Assembly (NCBI GenBank): GCA_030324005.1
Contig: JARDVH010000154.1
Span: 4,128,362 to 4,192,361, forward strand
Reading direction: 5' to 3'
DNA length: 64,000 nucleotides
Source: Negaprion brevirostris
Taxonomy: Eukaryota
In this document: one piece after another, positions 10,093 to 37,989 of the stretch
Layout: each line of letters begins with the position of its first letter
How positions within the stretch are numbered: the stretch's first letter is position 1
Notes under the pieces: generated by a model
Told to the model about the DNA's origin: nothing
The model's input: the letters and a program-made list of their open reading frames with translations, nothing else
Database searches by the model: none
Made by a program: the position numbers and the translations under genes

Positions 10093-10279
10093 TGTAGAAT
10101 AGTAACAGGACTAACCCTAATTGTCTATTGCTTTTCTTTGTGCAATCTTCATTTTAGCCTTTGCAATGTCATTCTATGTGATTCATCTCGTCATTTAATT
10201 TGTTTTGCCCCATTTTTGGCACTGTATCATGTGATATGTCACCCGATCAACATATTAATTGCGTTTTTGTAACGTATTT

Positions 10280-10530
10280 CTTCAAACAATGGGGAATTTA
10301 TCTAGCGCCTGTAACGTGGAAAAGGACTCCAAATGTGCTTCACAGAAGTATACTTTCAACGAAACAGATTCGGAACTAAAGAAGGAAAGAATAGGAGGAT
10401 ATTTAATAGCCTGGTTTTGTGTTGGGTGCTAAAGGAAGATGGACAATTGTATTTTTGGATATGTCTATGGGATAATTCTAAACCGTGGAGTTCTGGAGTC
10501 CTATCAATGTTGGGTGGAATATGCAGGAGA
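10280..10530 (-). mobile_element. decayed L2-like 3' fragment
   Basis: Reverse complement resembles the L2 3' end at 43510-43912. Confidence 0.4.
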
Positions 10531-10589
10531 GCAAAGTTTATTAAAACAAAACATAGAGTTTGTGAACTGAGTACAGCGACTTAAGCACC

Positions 10590-12468: not shown

Positions 12469-12625
12469 AAACACAGTAAGAAGTCTCACAACACCAGGTT
12501 AAAGTCCAACAGGTTTATTTAGTAGCAAAAGCCACTAGCTTTCGGGTTTCTGACCCTTCATCAGGTGAGCAGTGAGTTCTGATCACAATCAGGGGATATA
12601 AAGACACACGCTCAGTTTACAGTTT
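12469..12625 (-). mobile_element. Penelope-like/retrozyme-like repeat terminus carrying the hammerhead
   Basis: The terminus AGTAAGAAGTCTCACAACACCAGGTTAAAG recurs at 57831; hammerhead followed by AATAAA on the minus strand. Confidence 0.55.
12531..12570 (-). ncRNA. minimal type-I hammerhead ribozyme motif
   Basis: Minus strand GCTCAC-CTGATGA-A-GGGT(CAGAA)ACCC-GAA-AG/CT-A-GTGGC: full catalytic core, stem II, palindromic AGCT stem III, stem I and CUA cleavage triplet. Confidence 0.7.
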
Positions 12626-12629
12626 ACAG

Positions 12630-13328
12630 GGTGGTATCATGTTTCTTTGTCTTGTTGGAGCTGTACTCAAACAGGCAAGTGGAAAGTACCCCTTCACAGT
12701 CCAGACTTGCACCTTGAAGATGGTGGACAGGTTTTGGCAAATCAGGAGATGAGTTATCCACCATAGGATTCTTAGCCCCTGCCCTGACTTGTAGCCACAG
12801 CTTATAGTCAGATAGTCCAATTCAGTTTCTGGTCAATGAAAACCCCTGGCATGTTGATAATTTTTGTTTATTTGCTCATGCGATATGGGCATCACTGGCT
12901 AGGCCACCATTTATTTTCCATCCCTAATTACCCTTGGGAAGCAGATGCTGAGCTTTAATTTTGAACTGCTGCAGTACTTGTTGAGAAGATACACCTACAG
13001 TGCTGTTAGGGAGGGGGTTCCAGGATTTTGGCCCAGCAACAGTCAAGGAATGGCAACATGCTTCCAAGTCAGATGTGTAGCTTGCAGAGGTCCTTTGTGG
13101 GTGCTGGTGTTCTCAGGGAGAATTCAGCAATGATAATGCCATTGGATGTCAGGAACCATGGTTAAATTCTCTCATGCTGTAGATGACCATCGCCTTGCGC
13201 TTGTGCGGTGCAAGTGTTTCTTCCCACTTGGCAGCCCAGGCCTCCATGTTGTCAAACGCTTTTTTGTGTTTGGACGCAGACTGCGTCAGTAGTGGAGGAG
13301 TCGGGAATGGTGCTGAACATTACACAAT
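12630..13328 (-). mobile_element. family A LINE fragments (minus), with a second 3' tail nested at ~12865-13130
   Basis: Reverse complement of the family A ORF2 end (FKVQV..KGYFPLACLSTAPT) and of its 3' tail. Confidence 0.7.
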
Positions 13329-13546
13329 NNNNNNNNNNNNNNNNNNNNNNNNNNNNNNNNNNNNNNNNNNNNNNNNNNNNNNNNNNNNNNNNNNNNNNNN
13401 NNNNNNNNNNNNNNNNNNNNNNNNNNNNNNNNNNNNNNNNNNNNNNNNNNNNNNNNNNNNNNNNNNNNNNNNNNNNNNNNNNNNNNNNNNNNNNNNNNNN
13501 NNNNNNNNNNNNNNNNNNNNNNNNNNNNNNNNNNNNNNNNNNNNNN

Positions 13547-14600
13547 CACATTGGTCAAATGTTGCCTTGATATCAAATGATGGAAAGTGTCATCAACAAT
13601 CCTAAGATGCAATATTTGCTTAGTAATAACCTGCTCGCTAATGCTCAGTTTAGATTCTACCAGGATCAGCCTTTGTTCAAACATTGTCAAAATAGCTGAA
13701 CTCCATAGGAAAGGTGAGAGTACATGACCTTGACATCAAGACAGCATTTGTTTATTGCCGATTGCACAAGGCCATTCGTAAATGCAACAAGGCCTTGACA
13801 ATAACCAGGCCGGAGCTGCCAAATGGCCAGTAACATTCATGTCTCAGGTGTTACAGCTAACGACTATCTCCAATGAAACAGAATCTAACCACCACAGCTT
13901 AACATTCAATAGCTTTGCCTTCGCTGAATCCTGCATTGTCAATATATTGGGGTTACTGTTGACCAGAAACTGAACTGGGCTACTTCCATAAATATTGCGG
14001 CTACCACAGCAGATCAAAGGCTAGGGACCTTGCGGCGGGTAACTCACCTCCTAACTCTCAGAAGTCTATACACCATCTATAAGGCACAAGTCAGGGAGGT
14101 GATGAAATACTCCCCACTTGCCTGGATGAGTGCAGCTCCAACAACACTCATGAAGCTCGATATCATCCAGGATAAACATTCTGCATGATTGGCACCCCCT
14201 GGACAAACATTTACTCTCCCCACCATCTATGCACAATGGCTGCAGTGTGTAGCATCTACAAATTGCATTGGTAGAGCTCAGCAAGTCTCCTTAGACAGCA
14301 CCTTTCAAACCTAAGACTGCAGTAATCCAGAAGGACAAGATCAGCAGATGTTTGGGAACACTACCACCTTGTAGTTCTCCTCCAAGACACCCACCACCCT
14401 GATGTGCAAATATATTGCCATTCCCTCACTAACGTCGGGACAAAATCCTGGAACTTCCTCCCTAATACCATAATGGGTGTCCCTACAACAGTGGTCTGCA
14501 GTGTTTCATGAAGGTGCCACCACCTTGTCAGGGGCAATTGAGGATGGACAATAAATGCTGGCCTAACAAACGATTCCCACAGCTCACAAATGAATATAAG
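13547..14600 (+). mobile_element. family A LINE 3' portion
   Basis: TACACCATCTATAAGGCACAAGTCAGG..GAAATACTCCCCACTTGCCTGGATG and tail GGACAATAAATGCTGGCC. Confidence 0.85.
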
Positions 14601-14659
14601 AAAGGTTTACAGATACAGTGAGGGCTATTAAGTTATTAAGTGATTTAAACACTGCATTG

Positions 14660-15510
14660 TGAATCTTAAATTTGAGGCGTGAAGGACTCAAATAAAATGT
14701 AAAAATGTAAATCACTGAAGGTAGGGTTGATGGGTTAGTTTGACTGGCAGCAAGACAGCAGGATAGTCTTGGAGGAGCAAGAGACACTGATCTTGAGAAT
14801 GATGCAATGCCGTTCTAAGGTGACAAACGGGTGTACTAGATTTGCCACGGCAGATAGGCAAAGAAAGGATTGTAGGAAGATGCTAAGAAAAGTTAGATAG
14901 GTTTTGTTGTTGCAAGTTTATCAGATTGAACGCACTGGGTCAGACGCATAGCCAAAATTTCGAAATAGTTGCCAAGCCGAGGGCGGAATGGTGGCCAAGA
15001 AACAAGTTGTGGCAGGTGAAGACAATACCAACTGATTTCTCAAGTCTATAAGGAGGGTAGGATTCTTCCAAGACTGTAGACAGTCTGAAAGGGCAAAGTT
15101 AGCGGAAGGGTTAAGAGATGTAGTGGATAAGTAATGTAGGGTGTTGAAGTGTTCAGGTGAAGCTCAACCTACGCCTGCAGATGATACCACCAAGGAACAC
15201 ACGCAAATGCTGAAGATACATACTTGAGGCAATAGTGCGGGGCGAGGAGACAAACCATTGTCAGACAAGTTTTGGCTCCAACCAGTTGGGGAAGAGTGGA
15301 ATCAAAGGCAGGTAAGTCCTCTTGCGCTAGACAACAGAAGTGACACTAAACAGAATGAGTCAAAGTCTGCATAGATTTTTAGGAGAAACAAAATATCGCT
15401 GTCACATAATTGCCATTTGGAATGTTGGATAACTCGCTGCAACCCTATGGTCGAGAAATAATTGCAGAGATTCCAAGAGGGGATTGAACTGGGGATGACA
15501 CGGTTGAAAA
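14660..15510 (-). mobile_element. highly decayed L2 LINE RT region
   Basis: Minus strand gives remnants resembling GDIIRRHG.SFH.YADD near 15190-15130, plus L2-like 3' sequence. Confidence 0.45.
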
Positions 15511-17204
15511 AAGGTTCACGCAATGTTTTATCTTTTTGGGTAGTAACCTGTGCATATTTGTGGCATTTCTCTGAGACATTCATATTTTCAATCAGTCCAT
15601 TTTACATCTCTTTGAAACGTTAACCAACCATTGTTTAAAGCAGGAGGACTACAAAACAAAAAGTGACAACAGAATAAATACCATACCCAGGCTACAGAAC
15701 GGTCCATTTTGATTAACGACATTTCTACATCTTCCTTGCTCGGATCGCTGGACTTATTTCGAATCTTACCTAACGGATCGTGGTAAGCTGTTAAGAATCT
15801 GTCACGTTATAAATTGCAGACGGTCTCGCGGAAGGAATGGACTGGAGGGGGTAAATACTTTCTTATTACATAAGGTTCTTTGCGGTTAACAACGTCAAGC
15901 ACGATGTTCCAAACTGAAAATCAGCATTTATTGACAACATTCTTAATGCATTAATTTCATTCGTCCCGTGAATACTTCAATTTCAATAAACATAACGGCG
16001 AATCTATTTAACGCATTTATTTATTTGAAATTGCATTATGGCGTTGTGCAGCCATCTCAGTTGTAAATAGAATGGGGCCTAAGTTGCTTTCCCACTGAAC
16101 CAAGGCTTTCAACAAATAAATATCAACGTTTTAGGATCAAGACTCTTAAGGTTCAACATTGGGATTGGAAATGGAAATGTCATCAAAAATCAAGCATTTT
16201 TTTTCTGCGTATCTTCGTCAAAACCAAGGACACATGATTAGCATGCACAGTGGATCACTTAGTACTAAGTAATTAGACAGTTTGAATCACGTAACTGTCA
16301 GTTCTGTTGGGTTGTTATAAGTAGCACAGGCTTCCAAAACACCGCTTCGGGTAACTATATTAATTTATTACATGTTGTAATTTATTTGAGCAAGATTAAA
16401 AGCTGCAATATTCATCCTGCCAGCACTTTGTTCATTCAAGGTCACGGTGCCGATTAATTCCAAACCAAATTCCATGTCAACAAATAAAGCATAACTGGCC
16501 AAAAAATAAGTACAGATGAAAAAAATGCAAAATATAGATGGCAAATTTCTCTACTCTTTTTGGCTGAAATCGATTTCGACCTTCCCAGTTGGAAATCTGA
16601 TTAAAACAATAAACAGAATTACGTATCTTCATCATCCAATGTTTTGATCTAGTGTAAGTCCTTGTAGGTATTAGGGAATGTCAGTGATATAAGAAACCCA
16701 ATTTCTTAATGCAGAAAATATTCAGATTGTGTCCCTTCTTCTGAAGGGACCTTTCAGCTTCTGTAGCATTTCTATACTTGCACCTATACTGGTCGCCACT
16801 TAGCAATTTTTAACATGCCCATCTGCCGTTAAAACTAATATGGAACTTTGCACGAATATGTTGTAAGGAAGGACATATTCTCATGATTTAAAACATCAGA
16901 TAATGTAACTATAACAAAACTGTGCCTCAAAGCAGCCTCATTTTTAAATACAAAATTCATAAAGGTACTAATTGAAATACTTTTCGCAACTAATATAATG
17001 CCAGATGGGTTTTAAATAGAAATAACACGGCAAGCATCTGTGAAGGGATGACCACTTACTTGTGAGGTATCTGGCCTAATGAAGGAATTGCAAGCCAATA
17101 TGTCATCCTGTACATTTCTCCCAACTCTGCTGTGAAATTCTAGCATCAGACTTATTAACCTGATCCTGTCCTGAGCCCGAAGTTTCTTCAGAAAGGCTTG
17201 TCTG

Positions 17205-17620
17205 GAAAATGGAATATTTCCTATTTACCTGGTTATGGGGAGCCATTGAAGCAGTCAAGAAACTTTGCACCATCCAGGGAAGAGCAGGGATTGGCTATCC
17301 TTACCACCAAGTTCAACAGCAATCATCATCCTATTATTGGTCCTGCAGCAACATAACAATCTTATGTGGACAACTCCTCTCAACCTCGACAGCATCACAT
17401 GGAGCAGGAAGTGCAACTTCCTGGTAACATCACCTGCAATTCACATATCATCCTGATCTACAAACCGAGTCTAGAATGTTCACTTCCCCTTGGTTTTTAT
17501 AGAACAGGATTTATTCCTAATACAAGTATTTCTTAAGTACTAGATGGGACTGCATCCTTAGCAATAATGGAGCCCGTAAACGTCACAAAGTACTTTCCTG
17601 GGACATAAATGAACATCAAA
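17205..17620 (+). mobile_element. decayed family A LINE 3' fragment
   Basis: MEYFLFTWL..KKLCTIQGRA is a degenerate MEYSPLAWM..KKLDTIQDKA. Confidence 0.6.
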
Positions 17621-21400: not shown

Positions 21401-24400
21401 CGCTGGCAAGAATTGAAAATGCAGAAAATTCTAGATTTATTTGCAAAATTACACATTCTGTTTATCAAAACTATCAAAGCGATCCTTTTGGTGAGGTTGT
21501 AATTTAGCACGGCCTGTTCAATTCAGAACATCAAAAGCTTTGGCGCGCTTCCTTTTTGCATCAGAATGTTCTTCTGGCAAATGTAACTGCGCAACGCATA
21601 ATCTAAATAAACTTTGGTACAAAAAATAACTTGAACCAACAGTTTGCTGTTTTATTCTTATCGATCACAGCACAGTATTTTACTTGGAACAGACTCTAAT
21701 GTTCATGTTAGTGGTCCGTTTATATCCAAAGGAATGGCAGCAACTGCAAAGCCCTGAAGTCCTCGCAGTCCTTTTTCTCATTCAGATACAGCAGACCAAG
21801 TTATGACCTCATTAGCTCAAAGTTTTGCTTTATTCCCCCTCATTAATTTTAGAACTTATCTTAAAACATCCACCTTATCATCCCATCGCTTGGGCAGCAA
21901 GTACTTACTGCACTAGCCAGAGGACTTTCTGTTCCTTCCTGAGACCAAACCGTTGTCGGGGCCGCGGCGCTCCGTCTGATTGTTAACCTTGCCTTTCAAG
22001 TTCAACTGCAAGGTCATAGCTGGACACAAAGGAATGGCTAGCACGAGCTGCAAGCACTCCTCAACTTAATTACTTTCAATGCAATTGAACTTGGATTTCT
22101 GCCCTCCTCCCCCAGTCCCACAACTCCCCTCCCCCCACTAGAAAATGAGAGTGCAAGTCAGAAGCAGAATGCCACTTCTGGCCTCGTTGTTCTGGCCTGT
22201 CCTTCTTCGGGTAATTTTCTTACTCCTGACTAATGGGAAATTTTACGTTCGGGTGCGCGTAGAAATCCGATAGAAAGTAAAGCCTCAATTCGCCGTCGGC
22301 GCACTTGAACTTGAGTTACGCCTGCCATTTCCGAACACTCACGAGGAATATTATTGTTTTGCGCCGAGGATTAGAACTAATCCCGCTAAGTATGTGTTAA
22401 TCGCCTGGATGTAGTTTTTACTTTCGTAATGTTTTAATAAAAAATGCAGGGCTAAACAGTGAACTCAGAAAGCTATTTTGTGGTTGGCTCTTTTGCGTCA
22501 TGTGATGGTTGCAAAGATTTGAAATTACTTTTGTGATTTCGGGCTCTTTATTGCCATGCTTGAGTTAGATCCCCTCACACACCAGAATATTTTCAAAAGT
22601 GACCTTTTCACAATTCCACTGAAGTCGAAACAACCTATTAAAATTTCAAAAGGACGCGTGATAGCTTCACTGGCCGGGTGCATTATAAATAAGATATTGG
22701 AGTTTACTGTGAGAAGTGTAAACAAAACATTTCCTAAATATGGATTGTGTAATTGATTTGATGGTCACTTCTCTCATGTTTGCCGGTAGCTTCCTATGTG
22801 TTAGGCTGTTTTGTCATAGCCAGGTGGAAAGTCAAACATGGAACGTAGAAAATATTAATGTTCTACTGAATAGCTCCATGATAAATTCCTAATTCTTTGA
22901 ATGAAAACATTTTATTTATTTTCTTTCAGTCCATAATACCCACGCATATTTTCAGAAAGACACGCTAGCCCGGTTTTTGCAGAGCTCAGCGCTAACACAA
23001 GAATCTAACATAAGTGCATAAAATTTTTAAATAACTTGTAAAAAGGAGCGCTATGCAAATGGCGCACATAGGCGCTAAAACGCGTTTGCTTATCGGAAAG
23101 TTAAGTATATAATTTCCCAAATTAGAATTCAATAACTATTTGCAGCTTTTACCTGCAATTTATTTTATGATAAACTTCTGTTCATTAGAGTACTTGTGTG
23201 GCGGTTGCGTTCAGAAGTCAAAGCCTATGATCCTATATATGATTGAGGAAATCTATGACTCTATATATAATAGGACATATACCATTATTTACATACCTTA
23301 CTGTATATAGGTAATATATCGCATAACTATGTGTTAAAAAGAATGGTGAATGGCTTAAAACATGCTAAGATTACTTTTAGTATTTAATTGCCTCATTTGA
23401 AACCTTTAAAGCGGAAAAGCTGCTTTCACATATTTAAAAATAATAATGCCGCCAATAATACTGGAGGGTCGTGTATCCAGCGTAATGTATAAAACTCATA
23501 TGGTTAAGTGAAGGTTACTGATGCATATTTATGCGGAATTAAACTATTTGAAGCCCCCTTTCTCCATCGAGTCAGCATATTCAGTTCTTTGACCGCACCG
23601 CTATGAGTGAACTTAGTTCTCTGCAAAGAAATAGTTTTGGGTTGATAATTTTTATTTTGTACAAAAGCTGAGCTGAATTAGCCAAGTTCACACATTTAGA
23701 TTCTTCCCGGTGCGGCATGTGCGCATTCACAAATGAGCTCAGTAAATTCTCTGAACATTTTAATGAAAATATCCTTACAAGAAGTTAAGTAGTTTGTGCA
23801 TGGTCAATAATGGAAAATCAATACTTTATCACAAGGCTTTTAAAATCAACGCCTAGTTGATGCACAACCAGCAACCGGACAATCATTTCTGCTTGTGACA
23901 TAGTTAATGTTGTAGTAGGGAAGCCAAACTTGGCCTATATGCTGTTGATACCAGTACAGAACCCGGTTACAGTCAGTTATGTGACGGTACGCAACAACAA
24001 CTTCCCGTTTGCTTGTGTGCAGTTTCTTCAGTCTGTCGTGGCCTATTGGTGGAGCACGTCTCACTGTACTTACATCTCACTGTTCTCGTGATGATTACTT
24101 ACTCAACTGGAAACATTCCTGGTGTTAGATAACTCAAACACATTTTGCATTAACATCACCTTGCTGAATTGTTCTAAACTTCCTTTAGATTTACTGCAAC
24201 AAGCATGTGTAAGCGCGGATTTCCCATCGTGAGAAAAATTATAGTTTGTGCTCAAGAGAAGCATAATCAGGATGTTACATCTCAGGGATATGAATTAAAT
24301 ACAATGGCGGCAAACATTTCTACTACTTCCCGGCCGCTTATACATTTCTCAAAATGTATCTTCAAAGACACGTCAGATGTTTCTCAACGGCCCTAAATTT

Positions 24401-24895
24401 GCTTCGTGCAGTCATAGTGACTTTTTGCATTTTTTAAATTTCCGATTTGCTAAACTTTGGACTATCCGTGCTATTTTTGCGACGTAAATATTTGATTTAA
24501 TAGTGACACCGATTCCACAAGCAACAGCAGCTGCAAATAATTGTACCGAATTGTGTAAGGTAACGCCCGATGATATTTGTGTGTCAGTCCGGTTGGCTTT
24601 GTGTTTGTGTCTGCATGTATGTGTGTGTCCGCCTGTACATGTGCACACAGGCCTGTGTGTGTCGGGGAAATTACCTCGGCACTGGTTCTTCAGATAATTG
24701 TAAGATAATATTTTTAATTAACTGAACAGAGCATTATGTGGGAAGCGCTGTAGACAAACAGTTATTTGTTTTCTTAATCGCGTTTTAAATTTCCTTTATT
24801 TTGCATTATTTCTGCACGAGTTTTGTACAAGTTCATCCGACATGTTTAAACAAAGACTGACCATGTAGGCAGCAGTACTCCTGTTATGGAATGAT

Positions 24896-24915
24896 TAGCC
24901 AGGAGATGGCGCACT
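24896..24915 (+). promoter_or_regulatory. CTCF-binding motif
   Basis: TAGCCAGGAGATGGCGCAC matches the CTCF core CCASYAGRKGGCRS at 13/14 positions. Confidence 0.65.
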
Positions 24916-25012
24916 TGTTCTACTCATGATAACTGCCAGATCACATCACCGAAAACCGTTCGATTATTCATGAGCAGCTAGACGTCATGATCATTGGCGA
25001 ATACGCACGTGA

Positions 25013-25037
25013 CTGTCAAGGTCAAGGTCAAAGGCTA
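25013..25037 (+). promoter_or_regulatory. DR0 nuclear-receptor element (NR6A1/GCNF-type)
   Basis: TCA-AGGTCA-AGGTCA-A-AGGCTA; perfect DR0 at 25019-25030. Confidence 0.6.
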
Positions 25038-25521
25038 ATCAATACGATTTGAACTAAGAATCCAAAGGTTTTCGCAAATACTCAGTTACAAAGTCATCTT
25101 CACCCCACTAAATCCATACAGCCCAAGAAGCACAATCCAAACACATCCAACACGTTGCACAAGCAAGCACTTTCTGTGTCCCTATATCAATAAACGTGTA
25201 AAAGTAATTCTTTAACATTGTGCCACCAAACTGATAGTTCATGATGAAGTAGAGTGGCAGCTTTTTCTAGATGGAGACAGGAAAACCTTTTGTCAACTAA
25301 ACACTTCTTTGATTGAATTTCAAGTTCAGTAACTTCTGTTTGAATTCCGAGAGGCTGATGGCATGAAAACACGAATAAGTGGACTTGTCCGCATTTTCTT
25401 TCTTAAATTGATGTCATGCTAGATTATGTGCACATAAATACAGAGAACCAAAAGGTTGGGGACGGGTGGGGTGGCGTGGGGGAGTGGGGGAGCCTGTCTG
25501 GAGAGAGTTTGCAGCAAAATG

Positions 25522-25527
25522 TTTATT
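25522..25527 (-). terminator. candidate HoxB13 polyadenylation signal AATAAA (~1.1 kb 3'UTR)
   Basis: TTTATT on + strand at the end of an AT-rich UTR-like stretch. Another AATAAA lies near 26222, so the assignment is uncertain. Confidence 0.4.
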
Positions 25528-26661
25528 GGTTTTAAATTGTTGTATAAACCAGACACTATATTTAAAGTGTGAAATCCAGGAAAGATGAAGTTATATGCGT
25601 GATATTGTCCGGCTTCAGACAGTATATTTTCCCAGTATGTTTTCTTTCATTCATTCACTTCCTCCTGTTCAATAAGCAGCAAGTTATCTCGTGATATACA
25701 CCCACCTAATCTCATTTTGTTTCTCCGAGTAACTTACTTTAAAGTCAAATGGAAAAGATTTTCTGATTGCAAACGTAATTAATAGAGTCGGAGCTATATG
25801 CTTCCAGAGTTAGGATTTATCTCAACCTTAAATTTTCAACGCTCACTTTGTGATTAAATCATAATATTAAATTAGAAGTTAATCGTTGCTTGCAAGTGCA
25901 AAATGGTTACCAGCATCGGTTTATCTTTTTTTAAATCAAGCTTGCATAGTTAACATTAATTTATATATTTTAGATGATAAAGCACTAAACGTTAAATACA
26001 ATTTCACCTTTACGCGAGTGCTGGTTGTCACCTCTTGCGGTTAATATCAGTAATATCATCAGGTCATCGGTTTCTCATATATTATATGAAATATGAAACA
26101 TGTTCTATACCAAATAAGTCTATTATTACTATCAGTAAATGGATATTAAATGAATGCATGAGCATTCCCTGCTAAACACTATTGAACAAAATTAGTATAG
26201 TCGCAAAACATTTAATCCTTTTTTATTATTATTAATATTTTCCCTCAACCCGTTTTGCTTAAAAACAGCGTTTAGGCGGTTCTACTGCAGTCATGCCGAA
26301 AATCGACAGTTTAATGCGTAACCCAAACAAAACATAAAAAATAGCTTCTACACCAGTCAGACATACTTTGCATATCTTCACTAAACAAAACTGATAATAA
26401 ACAGTGATGTCGGTATGGTTACAGAGTCGTTATAATTAAATTTACATTCTGACCACGTATTTTAGTCCATTTTAATGGTATCCCATAACAAATCCTCCAT
26501 TACAGTATTAAAAGGAAGAGGACATGTTAGCATTCTGCAGACAGACTCCTTAAAAGAAGTGTGCAGTTAAACCCCGTCGGTCACAAACGTCTTTCGCATC
26601 TTTGTGATTAATTTCCGCGATTGAACAGTTTCAATTATCTTTTTTTAAAAGATAGTAATAA

Positions 26662-26909
26662 TTAGGGTGTGTTGGTTTTTACTTTCGCGATGACTTTCTT
26701 TTCCTTAACTCTCCTGTTCTGAAACCAGATGGTGATCTGCCGTTCGCTCAGGTTCGTAGCCGCCGAGATCTTCCTCCTCTTGTCTTTCGTGATGAATTTA
26801 TTTGTTGCATATTCCCTCTCCAGTTCTTTCAGTTGGACTTTGGTGTAAGGAATCCTTTTCTTCCTTCCGCGCCGAAAGGAGCTTCCATCCTGTTGGTGAA
26901 CTGCAACAT
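26662..26909 (-). CDS. hoxb13: HoxB13 coding exon 2 (homeobox, 248 nt)
   Basis: Acceptor ...CACAGCAG|ATGTT at 26910/26909; homeodomain; stop TAA at 26664-26662. Confidence 0.95.
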
Positions 26910-28117
26910 CTGCTGTGTGTGACCGTACACACCGCGCCAAAAACACAACAGAAAAACACATCAGGGAAATGCAGCATTGGAAAAGAATGCAGAAATATTA
27001 ATTAAACAACACGGTTANNNNNNNNNNNNNNNNNNNNNNNNNNNNNNNNNNNNNNNNNNNNNNNNNNNNNNNNNNNNNNNNNNNNNNNNNNNNNNNNNNN
27101 NNNNNNNNNNNNNNNNNGTCAACAATTTCAGTATCCAAAAGAGGTGTATTTAACTGAAAGGATGCTGCAAACGCCAGCAGCCTAACACTGCAACATGTGT
27201 GTAACATTCTAAGACGGAAAACAATGTAACAATAATGAAGTTAACATTATATTCCTACTGAAAGCCTTGCACCGGAAACGAAAAGTAAAACTGTGCATTT
27301 TTGAGCTTGTTCTAAATTACAGCATATTGCCAGAAATAAATTATTTGCAATCAATTGCATGGGTTCAAAATGTTTCCAATATACTTATTTAATCGGAGTT
27401 TGCAATTATAGGGAGTTTGGAATTATAGGGAGGAATTCATCTGTTACCTGCCAGTGTGGATTTCCAGAGATGTCCCGACTGTGCCTGCTCCTTAGAACAG
27501 CACATCTGGCTATTCCACCCATTAAGGGCCCAGGGCTGGTAGCCTTCCATAGGTAACAAGGCTTCATGCCTCGGCTCCCCTGCGCCACTGATAGTTTGGA
27601 CTACGGAAACGTCCAGATAACTTGGCATTGGTTGGTAGGCACTCGCATAGCCGTGGTAGAAAGCGAATTCCTTCGGCCGGCCTGGGTATTCATCAGTGGG
27701 GACAGGACTGTCCATATACTTGTCTCCTGGGTAACTAGACAGGGCGGCAGGCTGGGTACAAGGTTTGATTGAACTTCGACCCATTCGACAGGAGTAGTAG
27801 CCGCTGCCGAAATATCCATACGGTAGAGGGGCAGCGGTGGAGGCCTGTGGCATTGGACATGGGGTGCATTGCTTGCCAGGTTCCACTACCCCAGAGCCGT
27901 CGACTGTCGAGTAGCCAGAGCCGTGAACCAAAGGTGATGGATGAGCCCCGAGTGCAGAATGAGCCATCAAATTCCTGCACTGATTTGCAGAGAAATTGCC
28001 AGCACCTACAAATCCTTCCATTACCCCGTTATTCTTACTAATCTCATCCGAGTTGCTTTCATACAGGAACATCACACTGTCGACCCAGCGAGGTTTCAGA
28101 AGCAGTGACACTGTCAT
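26662..28117 (-). CDS. hoxb13: Homeobox protein Hox-B13, two exons: join(28117..27448, 26909..26662), 918 nt, 305 aa
   Basis: Exon 1 has Hox13 N-terminal motifs ([68 protein letters not shown]). Exon 2 homeodomain [66 protein letters not shown] has B13-type residues ([33 protein letters not shown]). A phase-1 GT-AG intron joins the exons in frame (WKSTLA-D-VAVH). Confidence 0.95.
26910..27447 (-). other. HoxB13 intron (contains a 100-N gap)
   Basis: GT...AG boundaries, pyrimidine-rich TTTTCTGTTGTGTTTTT tract upstream of the acceptor, phase 1 as typical of Hox13 genes. Confidence 0.9.
27448..28117 (-). CDS. hoxb13: HoxB13 coding exon 1 (670 nt)
   Basis: ATG at 28117; the ORF runs to donor CAG|GTAAC at 27448/27447. 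Confidence 0.95.
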
Positions 28118-28131
28118 ATCACGTTCAGCAT
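28114..28131 (-). other. upstream ORF MLNVI* whose TGA overlaps the HoxB13 ATG (ATGA)
   Basis: Minus strand reads ATG CTG AAC GTG ATA TGA; the main ORF starts at the last A of the ATA codon (AT-ATG-ACA). Confidence 0.5.
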
Positions 28132-28194
28132 TGGGTCTATAGTTTCTTTTAAGAGACGCAGAACTGAGAGCGTTACCGAATTTCTCCCAGCTAT

Positions 28195-28262
28195 CTGCAC
28201 TGACGCATAAACCCGGGTTAAAAAAACACGCCCGCCGATTGGCTGCTCGCGAATCACGTGTT
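28195..28262 (-). promoter_or_regulatory. HoxB13 proximal promoter: E-box CACGTG (28255-28260), CCAAT (28238-28242), GC-box-like CCCGCC, palindrome AACCCGGGTT, CRE-like TGACGCA
   Basis: Motifs read directly, 80-145 nt upstream of the ATG in a CpG-containing patch. The TSS is not determinable from sequence. Confidence 0.6.
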
Positions 28263-30232
28263 ATGCAAACACTGATAATAAACCTTCCTGCAGAATTGGC
28301 AGAAAAGAAAGGTTCATTGCGAAATAGAAATTATTAAAGGCACGCGTTAAAATGTCCAATTGTTGCAACTGTAGAAAGTAAGGGGTTTGCAATGGACACT
28401 GAACACTCTGCACAGCGTCAGTTCAAACAAAACAATGTCATGTTTTAACACATGAACCAAATCAAAGTAATTGCAGCATCTGGTTGCGTTCGTCGATCAG
28501 GGAGTTTCTTCGCTAAGTCTTTTGCATTAGACAGAGTTATGCATGGATATTTTAAAAAGTTGCTTCTAATTGTCAGAAAAATCGAATGTGAAACCTGAAG
28601 GGAAGTGGGTTGCAGCCGCCAGTAATACTTGTGTTTTTTAAAGCAGATTTGTTGGCTGGCATTTTACAGGCAGGTCAGTAGTTGTATTTTGCAATTGCTA
28701 TAAGAATGGTTGGTTAGTTATTATCTGTCCGGGATACCAAACCTAAACAATTATGAGAAGGTATTTCTTTAAAAAGCATTGAAAGTTAAAATCACATTAA
28801 CCAACTCTTCATTCTATACTTGGAACCCATTCTTTCAGACGATACGTGAGCATGTGTGGAAACATCTAACAAAAATAGCATCACCTTCCATTGAATGTAC
28901 AACACGTCAATAAACCACACACACATAGGTTGGCACACCTTCATAAACCTCTTTGAACAACATTTTGTCTATTCTGTCACATTTGGATATTTGGAGTCAA
29001 ACAAAATAAATAATATTACATGATAAATTCGAGTCAAAACCCTCCTAAAGAGTTAACGTTAACTGTACGTTATCCACATATCAAATATATCTAATAGCCT
29101 AAATCGAAATGGCTTTGCCACATGGCGCTTTGCTAAGAATTAACAATTCTTATGCGATTTGTCAGTTATGATCTATCACAGTACTGAGAAAATGTGTATT
29201 CTTCAGTGTGGAATTCTATTATCATTACCCCGTGCTCTTTTTACCTCGGATAATACCGCGCAATTCCCCATACATTTACTAAAAGTCAATTTCCCTTATT
29301 AAAGTCTTAGTAATTGACAAAGATTTATATCGGGGTTTGATATACCACAACAGGAATTTGCCTTACGTTTGCGGTCGCTCTTATTGTGAGCGTCTTATTG
29401 GTAATTATTTACCCAAACATCGTAAAGATTTATTCAGGTATTATTCTCTGGTTTTATTTTCAAATTGTGCATTTTGTTTCACACTAGAACTGTCCAAAGC
29501 ACAGCCGCATTCCCCTTTCTCAGACAATCCCCTAATGCTAAATATTTTCCAAAGTTCATTTTTATTTGGTGCCGAATGATTTGAAACTCGCATGTTTCTG
29601 AAATTTCTTAGTTTTTAAATAACTCTAATTCAGATTCCAAGTTCAACAGGACTGAAGTGTAGACATAGATGGCTCTGCTTTCTGTATCAGGCTGCAGAAC
29701 AGTGTTTCAACTGCATGTGTGAGGCAGGAGTAAGATTTGTTATATTAAACGTGCTTTATAGACACAAGCAGCTATTATTGTTATTTGCAAATTGTGGGCG
29801 AAGCTACCACTTAAAAGTGGTTTGATACGGTTTGAATGCAAGCCCACGTGAACATAAAGTTCCATATTAATTAAGAAATATCCTGCGATTGACGCTCATA
29901 AATCTCTTCCTGATTTTAAAAGCTCCAACATTGTGTTATGTACTAGTCGATCCAAACAAGATATCGCATTCCGAAAGACAAGAGCGATATGTTTTTGTTA
30001 ATTCCTCTCTCAATGAGCACCGTGGCAATAACATGTTGAGAGTGATGTGGCGACATGGGAAGTGCAGTGAAGACTGATCCTTGCTTATTTGTAAATTCCC
30101 AGGATTATTATCAACTTTGAAAGTATAACAAACTAAACTTTCTTTGCTTTTTAAAGAACAAAGTGTAAATTTGGGCGTAAACTGAAAATTAACTTCTGAA
30201 AATAAAAACAGCTGCTTTATCAACGGCCATTT

Positions 30233-30251
30233 GCTGCAGTTGGTGGCGCCC
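30233..30251 (+). promoter_or_regulatory. possible CTCF motif upstream of HoxB13
   Basis: GCAGTTGGTGGCGC has two mismatches to CCASYAGRKGGCRS. Confidence 0.3.
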
Positions 30252-31460
30252 GCATTGCTATAAAACCGATGAAAACTCCGAATAGAAAACATTGGTCAGA
30301 AAGTTAATACCAATGTTACACAAAGCGAACTGGTCAATCAAGCGATTCATCTCAAAATGTTATTTTTATCAGTAGGATTCATCGACGGACTAATAAATTA
30401 TAGATCACCAAGCGATGGGATTTAAATTTCAAATGCCATTAAGATAGAATCCAAAGAGCCTGGGAAATGGTTAGGCGCTATAGAGATGCAAGTCCGTTCC
30501 CATGTTCCATCTAAAGCCGCCAGGAGACAAACGCTTAAGCGGTATGTCACAATTCCTACGTATTTGAACAACATTTGATAACAAATATCAGATCTTTAGT
30601 CATTTGTCCCAATCATAGTCAGTCTATCAAATGAACTCCCCATCAAAATAATTCAAATGAAAGTGAACGTGTGCGAAGAACCATCTCTGTAGCACAATAA
30701 ATCCCTTCAGGGAAGAAAGGAGCACAAAACACCAAACATATTTACAAATAAACAATACATGTCGGAAACACTATGCCTAGCGAAATTCAGATTTCCTATA
30801 ATAATTTTCATTTGGTCCAAGCTACCCTCTTTAGATGGTAAGCTATTAACAACACCTTTTCCTACCGATCCCTCTTTCTGTTTATGAAAACTCAAGTGAA
30901 AAGATTATTTTTACTGCCTACTTAATTGTGCGAACAATGTTTTAAAAGTATTAAACAATACACAAGTGATGTGTTAACGTTTTTATGTGCGACTAATAGC
31001 AGATGTCTGTTTTCCAATATTACACCAAAATTTCACAATAAGGCGGGATGATAGGAAATTTATAAACGACATCTAAACAATTCTATTAGCAATTAAATAT
31101 TTGTCAGTCATCATATACCATGGAACAACATTACTATTTGTTTAAAGAGCAGTTAATTGTCGTCGAGTATAACTTACAAATAAAAATAAATGTTAGCTAA
31201 CCAGGCTTCCTATCAATTTGAAATTTGATTTTTCTTTAAATGCCTATAACCATTAGTTGTTTATTTGCATTTAACGCTTCTGATGTGAAGAGAGCAGCAT
31301 TTCAATTTTTATCAATTCGCTTGAGCCTGGGTTTTGAGTAAAGTCTTGGTACAGAAAAGCTCTGGGTCGGTGTTCGAGGGAGGGGAAGATGTGCCGAGGA
31401 CGAGACACAAGCAATTAAGGAAGAGTCAGCCTTTTTTACATACGAGTTAGACACGGCTGA

Positions 31461-31478
31461 AGGCCAAGGTCAAGGTGA
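31461..31478 (+). promoter_or_regulatory. triple DR0-like nuclear-receptor element
   Basis: AGGCCA-AGGTCA-AGGTGA in non-repeat DNA 3.3 kb upstream of HoxB13. Confidence 0.45.
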
Positions 31479-33679
31479 AAGTTAAGAGTCTAGCCGCTCA
31501 GAAAGCTGTCATTCAAGTGCTTTTCCTTCCAGTCTGAGTCCCATCAAAACAAAACCCCTGATCGCTTCACTGCTTCCTTTATTCGTTGAGAAAAGCATTC
31601 GGAAGCTAATACTCCTTAAGCAACGCAGTTCACAAGACGGTGTGAGACATATTAATTAATTTAAAGAAAAAAAAACTGGTTTCGAAGAGATTCCAAGTAA
31701 TATCACAGAACTTTTGCAGCTGACTTTAGTAGATCAACAACTGTTGGCTAAATAATTTGAGATACCCACATAAAAGTTCATTTTGCACGTGTTTTCCTAA
31801 CAAAAACTGACATCAAATTTATTCACATATGGTATCACTTTAGTATATTGTAATTATACCTTTATTTTAAACTCCGATAACCTAACAAAATATTTATATT
31901 ACGATCAAGCACAACTGTATGAAATGCCATTCAATGTGGGATTGCATGTATCTGGACCCAATGATAACAAAATCTCGGGAAAAAAATGGTCAGTCACTAC
32001 TTGAGATCAGTAAAGAGTTTTAATGAACCTTCATTTATTTACATTTACTGTTGTGTACAAAACACAGCTTTGTACACACATTTAATTTTTAAAAGCCGCA
32101 GAGATATACAAAAGCTGCAGCCGCAGTACAAACACACTGGTTGCTCCCCGTATGGTCACTGGGCCTTGATTTGTTTAGAGGTGTTGGATCTCGTGCTGTG
32201 TCCACACTAAAGTTATATAGCAGCTCGTTTCTGTCTCCCCGAGGTATCTGAATATTGAAAACTATTCGAGGAAGTAGAGTTAATTTAAATTCAAATTATT
32301 GAAATGTTACCATGCCACTACAATCGCTGGCAAAATATCTTAGCTTATTTGCTTCGAAATATTACATATACACAAAAATTCAGGCTTAGTTTCAATGGTG
32401 GTTATTTATATGAAATAGTTTCCACCAAAGGGCGGCGCATAGATTCAATATTATTCATGAATCAAAGAAATGACAACACGGTTCGACATGGCGAGAAGTT
32501 ATTTCCAATAACTTGCTTCTTTTGTCTATTAAAATATTATTTAAGTCTTTTTAATTCGAAAAAATGCATACTTTCACAAGCCGAGCTGATAATATTACAT
32601 TATTTGCATGAAAATGGTTTTATATTTTCCTCCAAGACTATTTTCTTGCGAGACTTGCATGGTGCTTTTTGTGGGGATTGGTGGAGTGAAGGGCCCATAA
32701 GCATTCGAAGAAAGGCTACGGCGAAATTACGAAGAATGAGAGACTCCAGTGTCCGAGAGAGAAAAAAACAAACACAGGAAAGGGAAGAGTCATCCTAACC
32801 ATGCTCCGGCACCTCGCATGCGTTTGCTTTGCGCGTCTTCTGCAGGATTTGCCCTTACTCTCGCCGGCGCTTTAATCAGTGATCCGGACAAAGACTTGTG
32901 GATGTTTACGGCGTAATAGTAATTTCAACCTCACTCTCAGCCCTACTCCGTTAAAAATTTATTTCTCACCAGAAAACGTGCATAATTTAAGATATTGTGT
33001 TAAAAGAGTTCGTTTTTTTTAAAGGAAATACGTCCGGAATTGGTAAATTGTTACTTTGGAAATGGAATTATACGCCTCCGTTGCCATTCCTTGCGAGTAG
33101 TCGTTTTAGGTCACTTTACAACGAATGTGGCGCGTACTTTCACATTTAGACCATCGGTAAGTATGGAAGTGAGTATATCCGAGGTAGAGTCGTCCTCCTC
33201 CCTCTGGGTAGTTGCAAGATGACCCAACTGAAAGGTATCTCAGAGTGGGGGGCACTTCCGGGACCTCTCCACGCTGTAAAAATGCAAAAAATGTTAATAT
33301 TAGACAAAATACTTCAAAAGTTATTTAAAGTTAATTAACCTCACGAACTCGAAAATAATTTTAGCTGTACTTAAATATATTCCGTTCACATTGTTCCGTG
33401 TGTTTTCTGCATTTACAATAATTGGGTCCCCATCAGCATCTTTAATAAAAGCTGAATAACCCAAAAAGACGAATCTCCCTTTTACCATTGCGGTGTTTAG
33501 ACTTTTCTCTTGCAGTAATAACCCCGTCTGCATTGGTATTTCCGTGTTATCTATAAAAGAAAGTCCATAAATAAAACAATTAAGAATTACTGGTTACTTT
33601 TTAAAAAAAATACTGCACTCATATATTTTATCCACCAGTTTTTGGTATTATGAACATACGGCATTGTATTTAAAGTAAA

Positions 33680-34195
33680 AACAAAAAATGCCAGAAAAAC
33701 TCAGCAGGTCAGACAGCATCTTTGAAGAGAGAAAATGGAGTTAACGTTTCGAGTCCGTATCTTCAGAGCATTGTATGTAACATTTTTTCTATGGGGTTGA
33801 ATACATTCAATTAAAGTAAGCAATGAAGTAGAAATATCGTCAACCTCGCGAAAGAGACCTGGGAGAGAATTGACCATTTTGCGGATATACATTTGGGATA
33901 TATTAACCATCCGAAAACTCATGCGATCCATCTCTCTAATGGATACATCGCTCAAGGACTTTACTAATCAATTTACTCTTTCTTCTGAGTTGGTGCAGAA
34001 TAGCATGCTTATACATGATGTTATTTCTTTGACAATTAAATAGCTTCTGTGTGAATTCCCTTCTCGAATTCTCACCATTAACGACCAATGCGGTCAATCT
34101 CGCAAATCGCTCAAACATCGATTAGTGGCTATTTTCCCTCTCCACAGTTGCTGGCAGACCTATTGAGTTTTTCCAGCATTTTATGTCTTTGTTGT
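33680..34195. mobile_element. Penelope-like element with inverted terminal repeats (33680-33770 and 34125-34195)
   Basis: AAAAACTCAGCAGGTCAGACAGCATC... and its reverse complement GTTGCTGGCAGACCTATTGAGTTTTTCCAGCATTTT. Confidence 0.55.
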
Positions 34196-34789
34196 CGTAG
34201 CTATTCCTGATTGAAAATGGCAAACGTTGATTTCATATCGCATAAAAATATCTTTTTGTTTCTATAAACTACCTCTGTACAGTCGAATTTGCGTACGAAA
34301 CATTTACGATATTTACACAGGATACACGGGTCAAATATACTGATGCACAATTCTACACGTGCAAAGGAAAATGAAAAAGTATAAAACAAGAAAGAGTAAC
34401 AATGCTGTAAATACAAAACTAACATAGATTGCTGATTACGGACAATGAGCCACTCAGCACCAGAAAACGAGAAAAAAGTCAACTTTTCTGCTGTGGGCTC
34501 TGGGTCAGAATGGTGCAATTAAATTTTCCTTTTCTTTTAATTTTCCTATTCAGATCTAAATACCTGTTGAAAGTTTGTGTGATATAATTAATATACAATT
34601 CTTGCGTTTGTCCATTAACAAGGGTATTTTTGATTTAATGACAAATAATAGCCACATATCACGAATAACCAGGAAAGATTAACGCCAAATGATTTTCCAT
34701 CAACTGGGAAAATAAGGCAGCTATGAGGAGATTGTTTTTCTGTCAGTGAATCATAAATCTTTGGAACTTTCTTCCTCAAAAGTCAGTGA

Positions 34790-34980
34790 AAGCAGAGTCT
34801 CCAAATCATTTGAAGGAGGAGTTGGATAGATTCCTGTGAAGAAGGAGTTGGATAGATTTCTGGTAAGCAAATGGGTGAAGGTTATCAGAGGTAGGCGGGA
34901 AAGTGATGTTGACCCTACATTCAGATTAACCATAATCTTATTGAATAGCAGAACAGGCCTGAGGAACTGAGTGGCTTCAT
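34790..34980 (+). mobile_element. CR1 3' end fragment
   Basis: GGAGTTGGATAGATTTCTGGTAAGCAA..GGTTATC..ATCTTATTGAATAGCAGAACAGGCCTGAGG. Confidence 0.7.
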
Positions 34981-35606
34981 ATGTTGTATTGAAGGGGAGG
35001 GAGAGAACAGGGTGAGAGTTATATGTTATTGTTTTTATATGGTTTTTTTCAACCTCATGTTACTCCAAAATGAATGCATCGCTTCCTTGCTCCTCAACCA
35101 AGGTATTCACTTATTGTTTTCCAACAATTCAAAGTATCTGTCAGCAAAAAATAATTCTCATTTGGGCTTTAATTGGGGAATAATTTGGGCAGTAACATGT
35201 GGCTGCCATTTGAAGAGCTATATGGACAGGATCACTGACCAATTGCAGGATGATGAAATTAAGCACAGTAACTCTTAATCGACCAGTGTTGTCACGATGG
35301 GCTAAATGGCCTCCTTCAGTGTCGTAAATTTTCGATGATTTTTGATAAGGTAAATGTGTCGTCCTTAAACAGTCCACAAGTCTCATGTTTCCACTTTATT
35401 CGCGCTGTAGAGAATGTCCAATATTTCGGGATTATGTCATCCAATTTTACATTAACTGGAGTTAGAATCAAAACAGAAAATGATTTTCATCTACCCAATC
35501 GCATCAAGGGGTGAATATTGGAATGACGCTCATTAACACACGAATGATTCTTTTCAGCATTTGAGAAACAGAGGTTACAGCATAAAGCTGTCATGGAATA
35601 TAAATA

Positions 35607-35850
35607 GAGCGACACAGAGAGAGAGAATGAAAGAGACAGATTGAAATAGCAACGGAGACGGAGGGAGAGAAAGTCATTCAGACTGGGGTGGCGGTGGGGA
35701 TTGCACAGAGATCGAGGCAGAAAGCGACAGAAACAGTCAAACAGTGACAGATAATCAGACGAACGGAGAGGTGGGAGCAGAGAAAGGAAATCAGAGACAG
35801 AAAGATAGAAATACAAACACAGAAGGATAGAGAGAAAAAAAGATAAATAA
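35607..35850. repeat. degenerate (GA/GACA)n microsatellite
   Basis: Purine-rich AGAG/GACAGA array. Confidence 0.7.
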
Positions 35851-35959
35851 AGCCTGGAATGAACCGTTCCAGCTTAATTATTCTCGAATGAGTAAATACG
35901 TCATGTTGTGCAATGCTCCAATCAAACCGTAAACAGGTTCAGGAGCAGGCAACGCTTCC

Positions 35960-35975
35960 TGACCTTGAACTTGAC
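35960..35975 (-). promoter_or_regulatory. DR0 nuclear-receptor element (NR6A1/GCNF-type)
   Basis: Minus strand GTCA-AGTTCA-AGGTCA; perfect DR0 at 35960-35971. Confidence 0.55.
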
Positions 35976-37989
35976 ACCATTAGGCCGCGGCTTTGTCGCA
36001 CTGTCGTTGGACTACGGGATATATAGCGAAATTAGAATGAATGAATATTTGAATATGTTGATGCGAAATATGCGTAATATACGCACTTAATTCACTAAAA
36101 TGAGATTAAAGCAATAGATCAGAGATGCATTTAAGGATATATTTCCCACAAAATGAACTTGGAGTTTTGAAACCGGAATTCTGTCACAGACTGTTGAAGT
36201 ATTGAATCAAACATCAAAGAAACCGTCACATTGAAGGCCCTTTCCTGAACGCACATTCAAAGGTTTTACAATTCCTACTTATTTAAGTTCTGCTTGTGTG
36301 TGCTTTCTTCACAGATGGGGTCTTGCAATGGGCAGGGCTTACAATTTATGTTTGTTTTTTATCATGCTGGATCCCCTTATTTTAAAACAAAACCTGTTTG
36401 TTATCTTGAGTGTGGAAGTTTGTTGTCGGGTAAGTGAAAAATGTATCCCTGTTGTCCCACAAATAACGTTATCTCCTCAATCTATATACACTTATAGTTC
36501 TTCCAATCTATACTCTTATAGACTGTAGGGCTCATTTCCTGTAGCACACTGACTGTTTATAAGAAATTTCGTCAGATCATCTCCCAAATGGTTTATCACA
36601 GTTTTAAACAAATTTTCTCGAATCTGACCATGTAGAAAGGATATATTTAGGAATCTGAACCTGAAGCTTTGATTCCTTTGGTCTTTAGTACAAACTCATA
36701 CTGTTCCGATATTGAACTTTAATGCCCCAGTCTGTCAGAGTATTAGGCTGCAAGCGTGGATCGTTTGATGTGAACAAAATCACCCTGCTGCTGTGTTCCT
36801 ATAAGCTTTTACTTAAGGACATACAATTATATACACGAGGAGAAAACACATTCAATTAAATAATTTAAAAGTTGCAGCAACAACACAAAACTTTGGCCTG
36901 TAGTTATTGTATATAAAAATATATGTACTTATAAATTAGATGGCCTTGAAGTATTTCTGCAACTATCCGTATATAAAAGATTCACTTTAGTAATAGTGAA
37001 ATATTGACAGGTAGAAGTACTTAGCGACGTGATGATCATGCTATGAATTCGCACAAGGTATTCATTAACAAATACAAAAATTTAAAACTGCAGCATGGAT
37101 GTTTACGTGTGCACAATAATCGTTTAGATTATATGGTACCGGACCAACTGATTACTATAAAATTCCTGTTAAATCAATCTACATTTTTGTCTGGATCCGG
37201 ACATTGTTATAACCACCCGCTGCCTTAAATTAAATAACAGATTTTTTATGATGCTCTGTGCAAACGTTTGGAATTTCGAGTATGGGACTGATTTATTTAT
37301 TACTGTATATCCTGCTCATCTGGGAAGTGATATCCTGTAGGTATTGTTTATGTGGTGGAATTCATTTCACTTACATTACCTTTCATTTGTATTTTAAACA
37401 CACAGAGCATGCCTTGATGCAAATATCCGCCAGTATTATCGCTGATTTTGTTTAAAGATGAAAACAATCTTGGCGTTGGGTGCAAAGTTGCTTTGGGGTT
37501 TATTGTTTTCTAATAGAACAATCCTTGTAGACAATTAAAACATTTTGGTACAAATTTTTGAATCTATTCCGAGAGTGCGAATTTTATTTTCGCTGTTAAA
37601 AAGAAATGTAGGGATTTTAGTGCAGACCAAATGGAAATAAAAATGTCGCTTAAAAATAAAACACGGTTGCTATCATGCCAGTAAAAGACTATTCTGTCCT
37701 GACTAAGTTTAATACTTTTGTCTGGACATATTCGCCTTTAACAAACTTATTTATATGCTGATCGATTTATTACCGTTCCACAAAGTAGTTTTCAAATGGC
37801 AGATTTGGAAATTATTTTAAAAGTATTACTTATTCTTGATCTTAAATAGTAGAGCAATGGATTTATCAGTTAGGCAATCTGCAATTGCAGAGTCTTGGTA
37901 TTAGGTTTAATTCGTCAACTTTACAGCAGAAAATATTGAATGTTAGCCAGAATTTATGTAGCATCGTATCTCATCTGACAGAAACGCTT

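Follow-up and report, generated by a model that had tools for sequence, protein, structure and literature searches.

Loss of Nr6a1 in the mouse derepresses Hoxb13 more than any other Hox gene, and the increase exceeds 200-fold in vivo and reaches 25-fold in vitro without Gdf11 (Chang 2022, PMC9755267). According to the same paper Gdf11 is the dominant activator and NR6A1 the brake, mouse Hoxb13 is expressed earliest in hindgut endoderm, and the mechanism of its derepression "remains to be defined". All four Hox clusters are said there to carry putative Nr6a1 ChIP sites, the statement itself giving no positions, and the Nr6a1 effect, which spans the four clusters, could in the authors' view be indirect (PMC9755267). 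A 2024 review gives DR0 elements and extended half-sites as the binding sites of NR6A1, with repression following (PMC10909835), and NR6A1 targets may be activated as well (PMC12957460).

The DR0 of the Oct4 (Pou5f1) proximal promoter is reported to be bound by GCNF/NR6A1, LRH-1, ESRRB, COUP-TF and RAR/RXR, forming a hub common to activating and repressing receptors that undergoes NR6A1-driven silencing. There, however, one composite site close to the promoter undergoes permanent silencing, whereas about 14 sites are distributed over the two flanks of shark HoxB13, whose silencing would need later lifting. Classical Hox RAREs are DR5 and DR2 elements at anterior Hox genes. The likeness here lies in conserved nuclear-receptor direct repeats near Hox genes; the difference is that the retinoic acid response activates 3' Hox genes, while the HoxB13 window lacks perfect DR1, DR2 and DR5.

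The mouse Hoxb13 gene has a DR0 of its own, which reportedly goes back to Moutier 2012. Known from Osz 2020 (PMC7515732), from PDB 6XWH and, in a 30-nt form, from the supplement of PMC12489474, this element has served in studies solely as a substrate for RAR/RXR or RXR, and no role in Hox timing has been given to it; RAR/RXR binding is the only receptor binding shown at it. RAR/RXR bound at a DR0 leaves reporters without activation, and a DR0 is no independent RARE. The searches made found no literature linking the element to NR6A1 or to fish, and the text of Mahony 2011 does not mention Hoxb13. Among the matches listed is a strong peak of RAR/RXR binding at mm9 chr11:96051451-96051951, between Ttll6 and Hoxb9; it is reported as belonging to an ESRRB/NR5A2-associated cluster, with occupancy dropping after 2 h of RA.

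The window, a 64,000-nucleotide stretch of Negaprion brevirostris DNA, contains a gene that a sequence-only reading had called HoxB13, and the name stands. Pairwise identity is 95-96% to shark HoxB13 proteins and 84-85% to ray and chimaera HoxB13, the best HoxA13 match (a ray HoxA13-like protein) reaching 62%, and the product carries the Hox13 N-terminal domain and a homeodomain. The exon 1 donor and exon 2 acceptor sites were read off the sequence. No further homeobox was found in the window (best other match E 0.79), nor any Rfam family at gathering score, miR-196 included. HoxB13, which helps to bring the body axis to its end, stands apart from the remaining Hox genes of its cluster.

Table. 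Coordinates in the window of the HoxB13 coding exons and of the nuclear-receptor-type elements around them.
Feature	Position	Strand	Remarks
HoxB13 exon 1, coding part	27448..28117	-	ATG at 28117; HoxA13_N domain; tblastn
HoxB13 exon 2, homeodomain	26662..26909	-	stop 26664-26662; Pfam Homeodomain E 1e-19; 97.6% to shark HoxB13
Perfect DR0 with 5' extension	25016..25030	+	1.6 kb 3' of HoxB13 stop codon
Perfect DR0 with 5' extension	35960..35974	-	7.8 kb upstream of HoxB13 ATG
Triple near-DR0	31459..31481	+	3,342 bp upstream of ATG; probable counterpart of published mouse Hoxb13 DR0
Four 8-base cores in 317 bp	21996..22314	21997 +, 22009 +, 22086 -, 22306 -	4.3-4.7 kb 3' of stop
8-base core half-site	23683..23690	+	
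8-base core half-site	24828..24835	+	
Extended half-site	25320..25328	+	one mismatch short of DR0 (25317-25328)
8-base core half-site	29638..29645	+	1.5 kb upstream of ATG
8-base core half-site	36154..36161	-	180 bp from upstream DR0
Four distal cores (9207, 13725, 16437, 17308)	9206..17315		

We find exactly two perfect DR0s in the window, both with the three-base 5' extension described earlier. Markov models of orders 0-5 predict 0.033-0.088 by chance, with P for at least two of 5e-4 to 4e-3, so that the rough expectation of ~0.03 in the sequence-only reading holds; a looser, purine-first half-site raises the number of DR0s expected to 0.10-0.19 (P 0.004-0.016). The predicted enrichment over dinucleotide shuffles is likewise borne out: when one mismatch is allowed the window yields six matches (two perfect, four with one mismatch) against 1.63 +/- 1.32 expected, and at least six occur in just 2 of 100 shuffles. 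Across direct, inverted and everted repeats with spacings of 0-12, two perfect pairs are found at DR0 alone, and the window holds no perfect DR1, DR2, DR3 or DR5. The zero-spaced hexamer direct repeat by which an NR6A1/GCNF response element is defined (PMC10909835) is thus present, as is its 5'-extended half-site, and the match of the HoxB13 sites to the NR6A1 type is upheld by that source. A classical activating RARE was rejected, since perfect DR1, DR2 and DR5 are all missing from the window.

The extended half-sites singled out before are all present (9206, 16436, 21996, 22306-22314 on the minus strand and 25320), and another, at 13725-13733 (-), had been overlooked. This 9-mer, which the review prints one base shorter (PMC10909835), has 10 matches, 8 of them independent, against 1.2-2.4 expected. 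Bases 2-9, referred to here as the 8-base core, occur 20 times where about 4 are expected and rank first among about 295,000 comparable motifs (8-mers in which one position is two-fold degenerate), whether the Markov order is 2 or 3. Both half-site variants are in excess, with 9 against 1.4 for G at the third base and 11 against 2.5 for T, a base that the NR6A1 extended half-site tolerates at this position. The 5' CA extension is found on 20 of the 89 half-sites in the window, and by definition in all 20 cores. Core sites occur on both strands. As the earlier reading had claimed for its sites, none of the 20 cores falls inside within-window repeats detected by self-BLAST, and none of 7 TRF rows covers a site, which speaks against a tandem-repeat origin; some may still be relics of old repeats present in a single copy. 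Merging two overlapping pairs leaves 18 independent sites, with a Bonferroni-corrected P of 0.05-0.08; against order-4 and order-5 expectations, which absorb the sites, the excess loses significance once corrected. The analysis confirms the earlier observation of such sites around HoxB13 and makes it stronger than first reported.

The sites are also clustered at the gene, as had been proposed: 10 of the 18 independent cores lie within 5 kb of the HoxB13 coding span, a zone that makes up 18% of the bases (P=4e-4), 11 within 8 kb (P=3e-3) and 13 within 10 kb (P=1e-3). The surroundings of HoxB13 hold 12 sites against 0.9 expected and the distal 47 kb hold 6 against about 3.1 (P=0.09), a split whose boundary was set after the sites were seen and with which the fixed-width tests agree. 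DR0 and 5'-extended half-site elements thus form a homotypic cluster over about 14 kb around HoxB13.

The triple near-DR0 noticed before at 31461-31478 is present, and with its flanks it agrees with the last 23 nt (3' end) of the mouse Hoxb13 DR0 30-mer at 20 of 23 positions. It is the only match in the window to the mouse 23-mer at three or fewer mismatches, and none of 100 shuffles contains one. Its flank bases match the mouse at 10 of 11 positions (P about 1.5e-4, from 13 near-DR0 loci). The two elements belong to the same gene and have in common an imperfect third half-site and a 3' tail; all three differences (6, 12 and 17 of 23) affect variable bases of the half-sites, the two half-site variants come in swapped order, and the 5' flanks are unlike. 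Given that the runner-up, at 25011-25033 over an unrelated perfect DR0, scores 18 of 23, that P is about 0.009 when only the 5 bases lying outside a tandem array are counted, and that the first 7 nt (5' end) of the mouse 30-mer agree at only 1 of 7 positions, the likeness is in part motif-level. On sequence similarity, the shark element is the probable counterpart of the mouse DR0 and may be an old element shared by shark and mouse. It lies 3.3 kb upstream of the ATG; the mouse oligo is presumed to lie in the RAR/RXR peak between Ttll6 and Hoxb9, from which the mouse Hoxb13 TSS is, by our assumption, ~4 kb away. The figure of ~4 kb upstream for the mouse element therefore presumes both that TSS and the placement of the oligo inside the peak.

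How might such a cluster act? We give an even chance to the proposal that NR6A1 reads it as a DR0 silencer composed of multiple sites, working as a gate; the word timer used before is not retained, Gdf11 being the dominant activator and NR6A1 the brake in the account of Chang 2022 (PMC9755267). During trunk elongation NR6A1 (GCNF) would occupy the HoxB13 sites, as a dimer at the DR0s and also at the extended half-sites, and would bring in NCoR/SMRT and the DNA-methylation machinery, keeping HoxB13 silent. At the trunk-to-tail transition NR6A1 would be cleared, in the mouse by miR-196/let-7 and Gdf11, after which Wnt and Gdf11 inputs could turn HoxB13 on. Being separated from the other genes of its cluster, HoxB13 may depend on a lock placed locally, and such a lock would account for the finding that in Nr6a1-null cells Hoxb13, alone among Hox genes, fires in the absence of Gdf11. 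At earlier stages ESRRB, NR5A2 or RAR/RXR probably hold the sites, followed by a handover as described at the Oct4 promoter. More tentatively, HoxB13 may have kept its own NR6A1 silencer since the shark-mammal split, with the mouse DR0 as its core and as the direct cause of Gdf11-independent derepression; we consider this possible, if doubtful.

Which receptor reads the sites? They may be real and selected and yet be read mainly by other receptors of like preference, any effect of NR6A1 being indirect or incidental, which we consider rather unlikely. NR5A2 or ERR monomers might switch HoxB13 on in tissue of the hindgut, the cloaca or the genitalia; alternatively, ESRRB and RAR/RXR might act in early cells as bookmarks of the locus. 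The published binding of RAR/RXR to the mouse DR0 strengthens the case for conservation and these rival readers alike, as the mouse element is known through that binding and the nearby peak falls, as reported, in the ESRRB/NR5A2-associated cluster. For NR5A and ERR monomers a T as third base of the half-site is unfavourable, and NR5A favours C at the fourth. Yet the third base is T in 11 of the 20 cores (G in 9), the NR5A-type variant, with C as fourth base, is found just 3 times (about 1.3 expected; obtained by subtraction), all six ERR-pattern matches are of the form that doubles as a DR0 junction, and DR0-bound RAR/RXR fails to activate reporters. On the other side, NR3B and NR5A are reported to need CA 5' of the half-site (PMC7406977), which the cores carry, and hindgut endoderm is the first site of Hoxb13 expression in the mouse (PMC9755267).

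We judge it improbable that the cluster arose by chance, by slippage of a six-base unit or by genome-wide word bias, with the mouse match reflecting convergent short tandem arrays. Some motif must top any ranking, the corrected P for the 18 independent sites is 0.05-0.08, a second window site reaches 18 of 23 to the mouse oligo, and the background models were built from the window alone; but the motif was named beforehand from independent mouse genetics, the excess is concentrated around the gene, and the sites lie on both strands, clear of within-window repeats and tandem arrays. COUP-TF and RAR/RXR prefer DR1 or DR2 spacing. That the cluster is a silencer on which COUP-TF (NR2F) or unliganded RAR/RXR acts as repressor, either by itself or in redundancy with NR6A1, is likewise improbable: binding to DR0, with displacement of RAR/RXR at Oct4, is reported for both COUP-TFs and GCNF (PMC4446430), but perfect DR1 or DR2 is absent from the window, the majority of sites are extended monomer-type half-sites, and the Nr6a1-null result (PMC9755267) would be left unexplained.

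The 2024 review (PMC10909835) treats direct repression of posterior Hox genes by NR6A1 as an open question; a referee called a test of it "mandatory", and the authors put it off. The special sensitivity of Hoxb13 to Nr6a1 loss, as described in PMC9755267, still lacks an explanation, and the present finding points to a short mouse element whose mutation would be a direct test and which has been cloned and crystallised before, for other ends. The shark-mouse similarity suggests that the trunk-to-tail brake may include a cis-element dating back to the origin of jawed vertebrates; the earlier term pan-gnathostome went further, with one 23-base match between two species behind it. If NR6A1 does read a silencer here, the lengths of trunk and tail could be adjusted among jawed vertebrates by gaining and losing such sites.

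The six distal cores (the four in the Table, 41481 and 47071) are near background and may be of chance origin. Among the 17 cores without a full preceding half-site, position -2 is G or T in 14 (binomial P=0.006) and position -1 a pyrimidine in 13 (binomial P=0.02), both counted by eye, and by these preferences the core flanks resemble partial upstream half-sites.

We favour, with middling confidence, the reading that the cluster of sites around HoxB13 in Negaprion brevirostris is a silencer read by NR6A1 (GCNF), a gate and not a clock. NR6A1 would read the cluster and keep HoxB13 silent during trunk elongation, its clearance would release the silencer and free the gene, and Wnt/Gdf11-driven HoxB13 expression would thus be gated. 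Three links of this reading are inferred: that the sequence is bound, that binding represses, and that what holds in mouse also holds in shark. The type of site is already known and one mouse site is already published; a literature search that covered few subscription papers returned none tying the Hoxb13 DR0 (a zero-spaced direct repeat of the half-site AG[GT]TCA) to NR6A1 or reporting a Hoxb13 DR0 in fish. Gurtan 2013 and Moutier 2012 may contain peaks of NR6A1 or RAR at Hoxb13.

The window holds a single homeobox gene, with two exons, and the sequence-only reading rightly named it HoxB13: among the best 120 of 369 matches, shark HoxB13 shares 95-96% identity with exon 1, the HoxB13 of ray and chimaera 84-85%, that of coelacanth and sturgeon 74%, and the best HoxA13 62%, and the protein carries the Pfam domains HoxA13_N and Homeodomain. 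Neither a second homeobox nor an Rfam family was found in the window; the 26.6 kb 3' of the gene (1-26600) matched neither another homeobox nor miR-196, and in this shark HoxB13 is set apart from the remaining HoxB cluster, as in mammals. Self-BLAST found no within-window repeats at 14,603-33,677, a stretch of about 19 kb that surrounds HoxB13 and runs on 3' of it; the CpG observed/expected ratio at 20-34 kb is 0.75-0.98, versus 0.26-0.7 in most distal bins. The gene's surroundings show the repeat exclusion, and probably also the low methylation, that typify Hox domains. Tandem splice acceptors 3 bases apart precede exon 2; the choice between them could yield isoforms that differ in a single residue. 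A 17-bp tandem duplication lies just within the intron.

Coordinates of features in the window
Feature	Position	Strand
HoxB13 exon 1	28117-27448	-
HoxB13 exon 2	26909-26662	-
Tandem splice acceptors	26909-26915	
17-bp tandem duplication	27395-27432	
Perfect DR0, 3' of HoxB13	25016-25030	+
Perfect DR0	35960-35974	-
Additional extended half-site	13725-13733	
Match to mouse Hoxb13 DR0	31459-31481	
73-base C run	45797-45869	
LINE-like broken ORFs	3158-3580, 7544-8350, 11323-11784, 47430-47975, 48993-49412	

Every DR0, near-DR0 and extended half-site (a 9-mer, the half-site with a 5' extension) listed from sequence alone was located at its stated place, and one more extended half-site was found. 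The two perfect DR0s are indeed unexpected, as had been estimated (0.033-0.088 expected, P 5e-4 to 4e-3), and DR0s with one mismatch number 6 against 1.63 +/- 1.32, a count reached by 2 of 100 shuffles. When repeats in direct, inverted and everted orientation were counted at spacers of 0-12, DR0 alone occurred twice; there is a single DR4, DR6, DR11 and ER10, and the window lacks DR1, DR2 and DR5. A CA extension is present on 20 of the 89 half-sites; in 56,224 unmasked bases the 8-base core thus defined, a motif chosen beforehand from mouse genetics, is seen 20 times where 3.9-4.0 would be expected. Of about 295,000 8-mers in which a single internal position is two-fold degenerate, it ranks first at Markov orders 2 and 3 (log10 P -7.9 and -8.2; runners-up -6.4 and -6.0), and both variants, with G or T at the third half-site base, are enriched alone (9 versus 1.4 and 11 versus 2.5 expected). 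Should NR5A2, ERR or RAR/RXR be the working readers of these sites, the main rival to NR6A1 and one that we consider rather doubtful, the CA extension would fit, being common to NR5A2/ERR-type sites (PMC7406977). RAR/RXR are likewise the sole receptors shown to bind the mouse element. By the usual specificities of these receptors, however, the T variant, found in 11 of 20 cores, leans against NR5A2/ERR readers, and so does, for NR5A, how seldom its C variant occurs (3 versus about 1.3 expected).

Chance as the source of the excess, or convergence behind the mouse match, appears improbable. Two pairs of cores overlap within DR0s, and the 18 independent sites give P 2-3e-7, which becomes 0.05-0.08 after Bonferroni correction over all motifs; order-4 and order-5 models expect 5.6 and 8.4, values raised by the very sites being counted, and against these the excess is not significant once corrected. 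The proposed clustering at HoxB13 is borne out: a distance of 5 kb from the coding span takes in 10 of the 18 (P=4e-4), 8 kb takes in 11 (P=3e-3) and 10 kb takes in 13 (P=1e-3), whereas the number of distal sites, six, is close to the background level (3.1 expected, P=0.09). By eye, in the 17 cores without a full half-site ahead (3 of the 20 being left out), G or T stands two bases 5' in 14 (P=0.006) and a pyrimidine one base 5' in 13 (P=0.02), as if each core were a worn DR0.

The mouse Hoxb13 DR0 is a standard reagent in the RAR field; RXR has been crystallised on it, and DR0s are bound by RAR/RXR yet are not independent RAREs (Osz 2020, PMC7515732). The supplement of PMC12489474 gives a 30-nt version, whose 3' 23 bases agree with the triple near-DR0 of the shark and its flanks at 20 of 23 positions; nowhere else in the window is there a match with at most 3 mismatches (0 of 100 shuffles). 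Flank bases agree at 10 of 11 (P ~1.5e-4, conditional on a near-DR0, 13 loci), or with P ~0.009 when restricted to the 5 bases breaking or outside a tandem array. Against orthology count the 5' 7 bases of the 30-mer, of which 1 is identical in shark, and the DR0 at 25011-25033, which itself matches the mouse oligo at 18 of 23; conservation would rest on the single 23-base match at the triple. The PMC4446430 supplement lists, for F9 cells, a strong peak of RAR/RXR in cluster B at mm9 chr11:96051451-96051951. It sits between Ttll6 (end 96,026,765) and Hoxb9 (start 96,132,823). Mouse Hoxb13 presumably starts about 4 kb beyond the peak, a distance that, with the oligo assumed inside the peak, resembles the shark's 3.3 kb.

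According to PMC4446430, cluster B regions are DR0-rich and ESRRB/NR5A2-associated, and 2 h of RA strips them of RAR/RXR; its authors propose GCNF or COUP-TF displacing RAR/RXR, as at Oct4. That COUP-TF or unliganded RAR is the repressor here we hold to be very unlikely. To return to NR6A1 as the reader, a 2024 review (PMC10909835) names the DR0 and the extended half-site as its sites and calls the directness of its action unclear. According to Chang 2022 (PMC9755267), Hoxb13 is the Hox gene most derepressed upon Nr6a1 loss, rising more than 200-fold in E9.5 tailbud and, in vitro without Gdf11, 25-fold, which they call a "striking exception" with a mechanism that "remains to be defined"; putative Nr6a1 ChIP sites are reported there in four of four Hox clusters, with no positions, and direct-target tests are deferred. 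One small mutation would make the stated open question of direct NR6A1 action testable.

Beside the 3' DR0, at 24900-25012, lie what we take, by eye and from the usual consensus, to be an E-box, a CCAAT-like box and a CRE-like word, with a presumed CTCF-like site about 100 bp from them and a second near 30235-30252. Taken together, the words beside this DR0 resemble a composite element with a regulatory or boundary role. Elsewhere, a 73-base C run adjoins an assembly gap and is probably an artefact, and five broken ORFs resemble, by eye, fragments of LINE reverse transcriptase.
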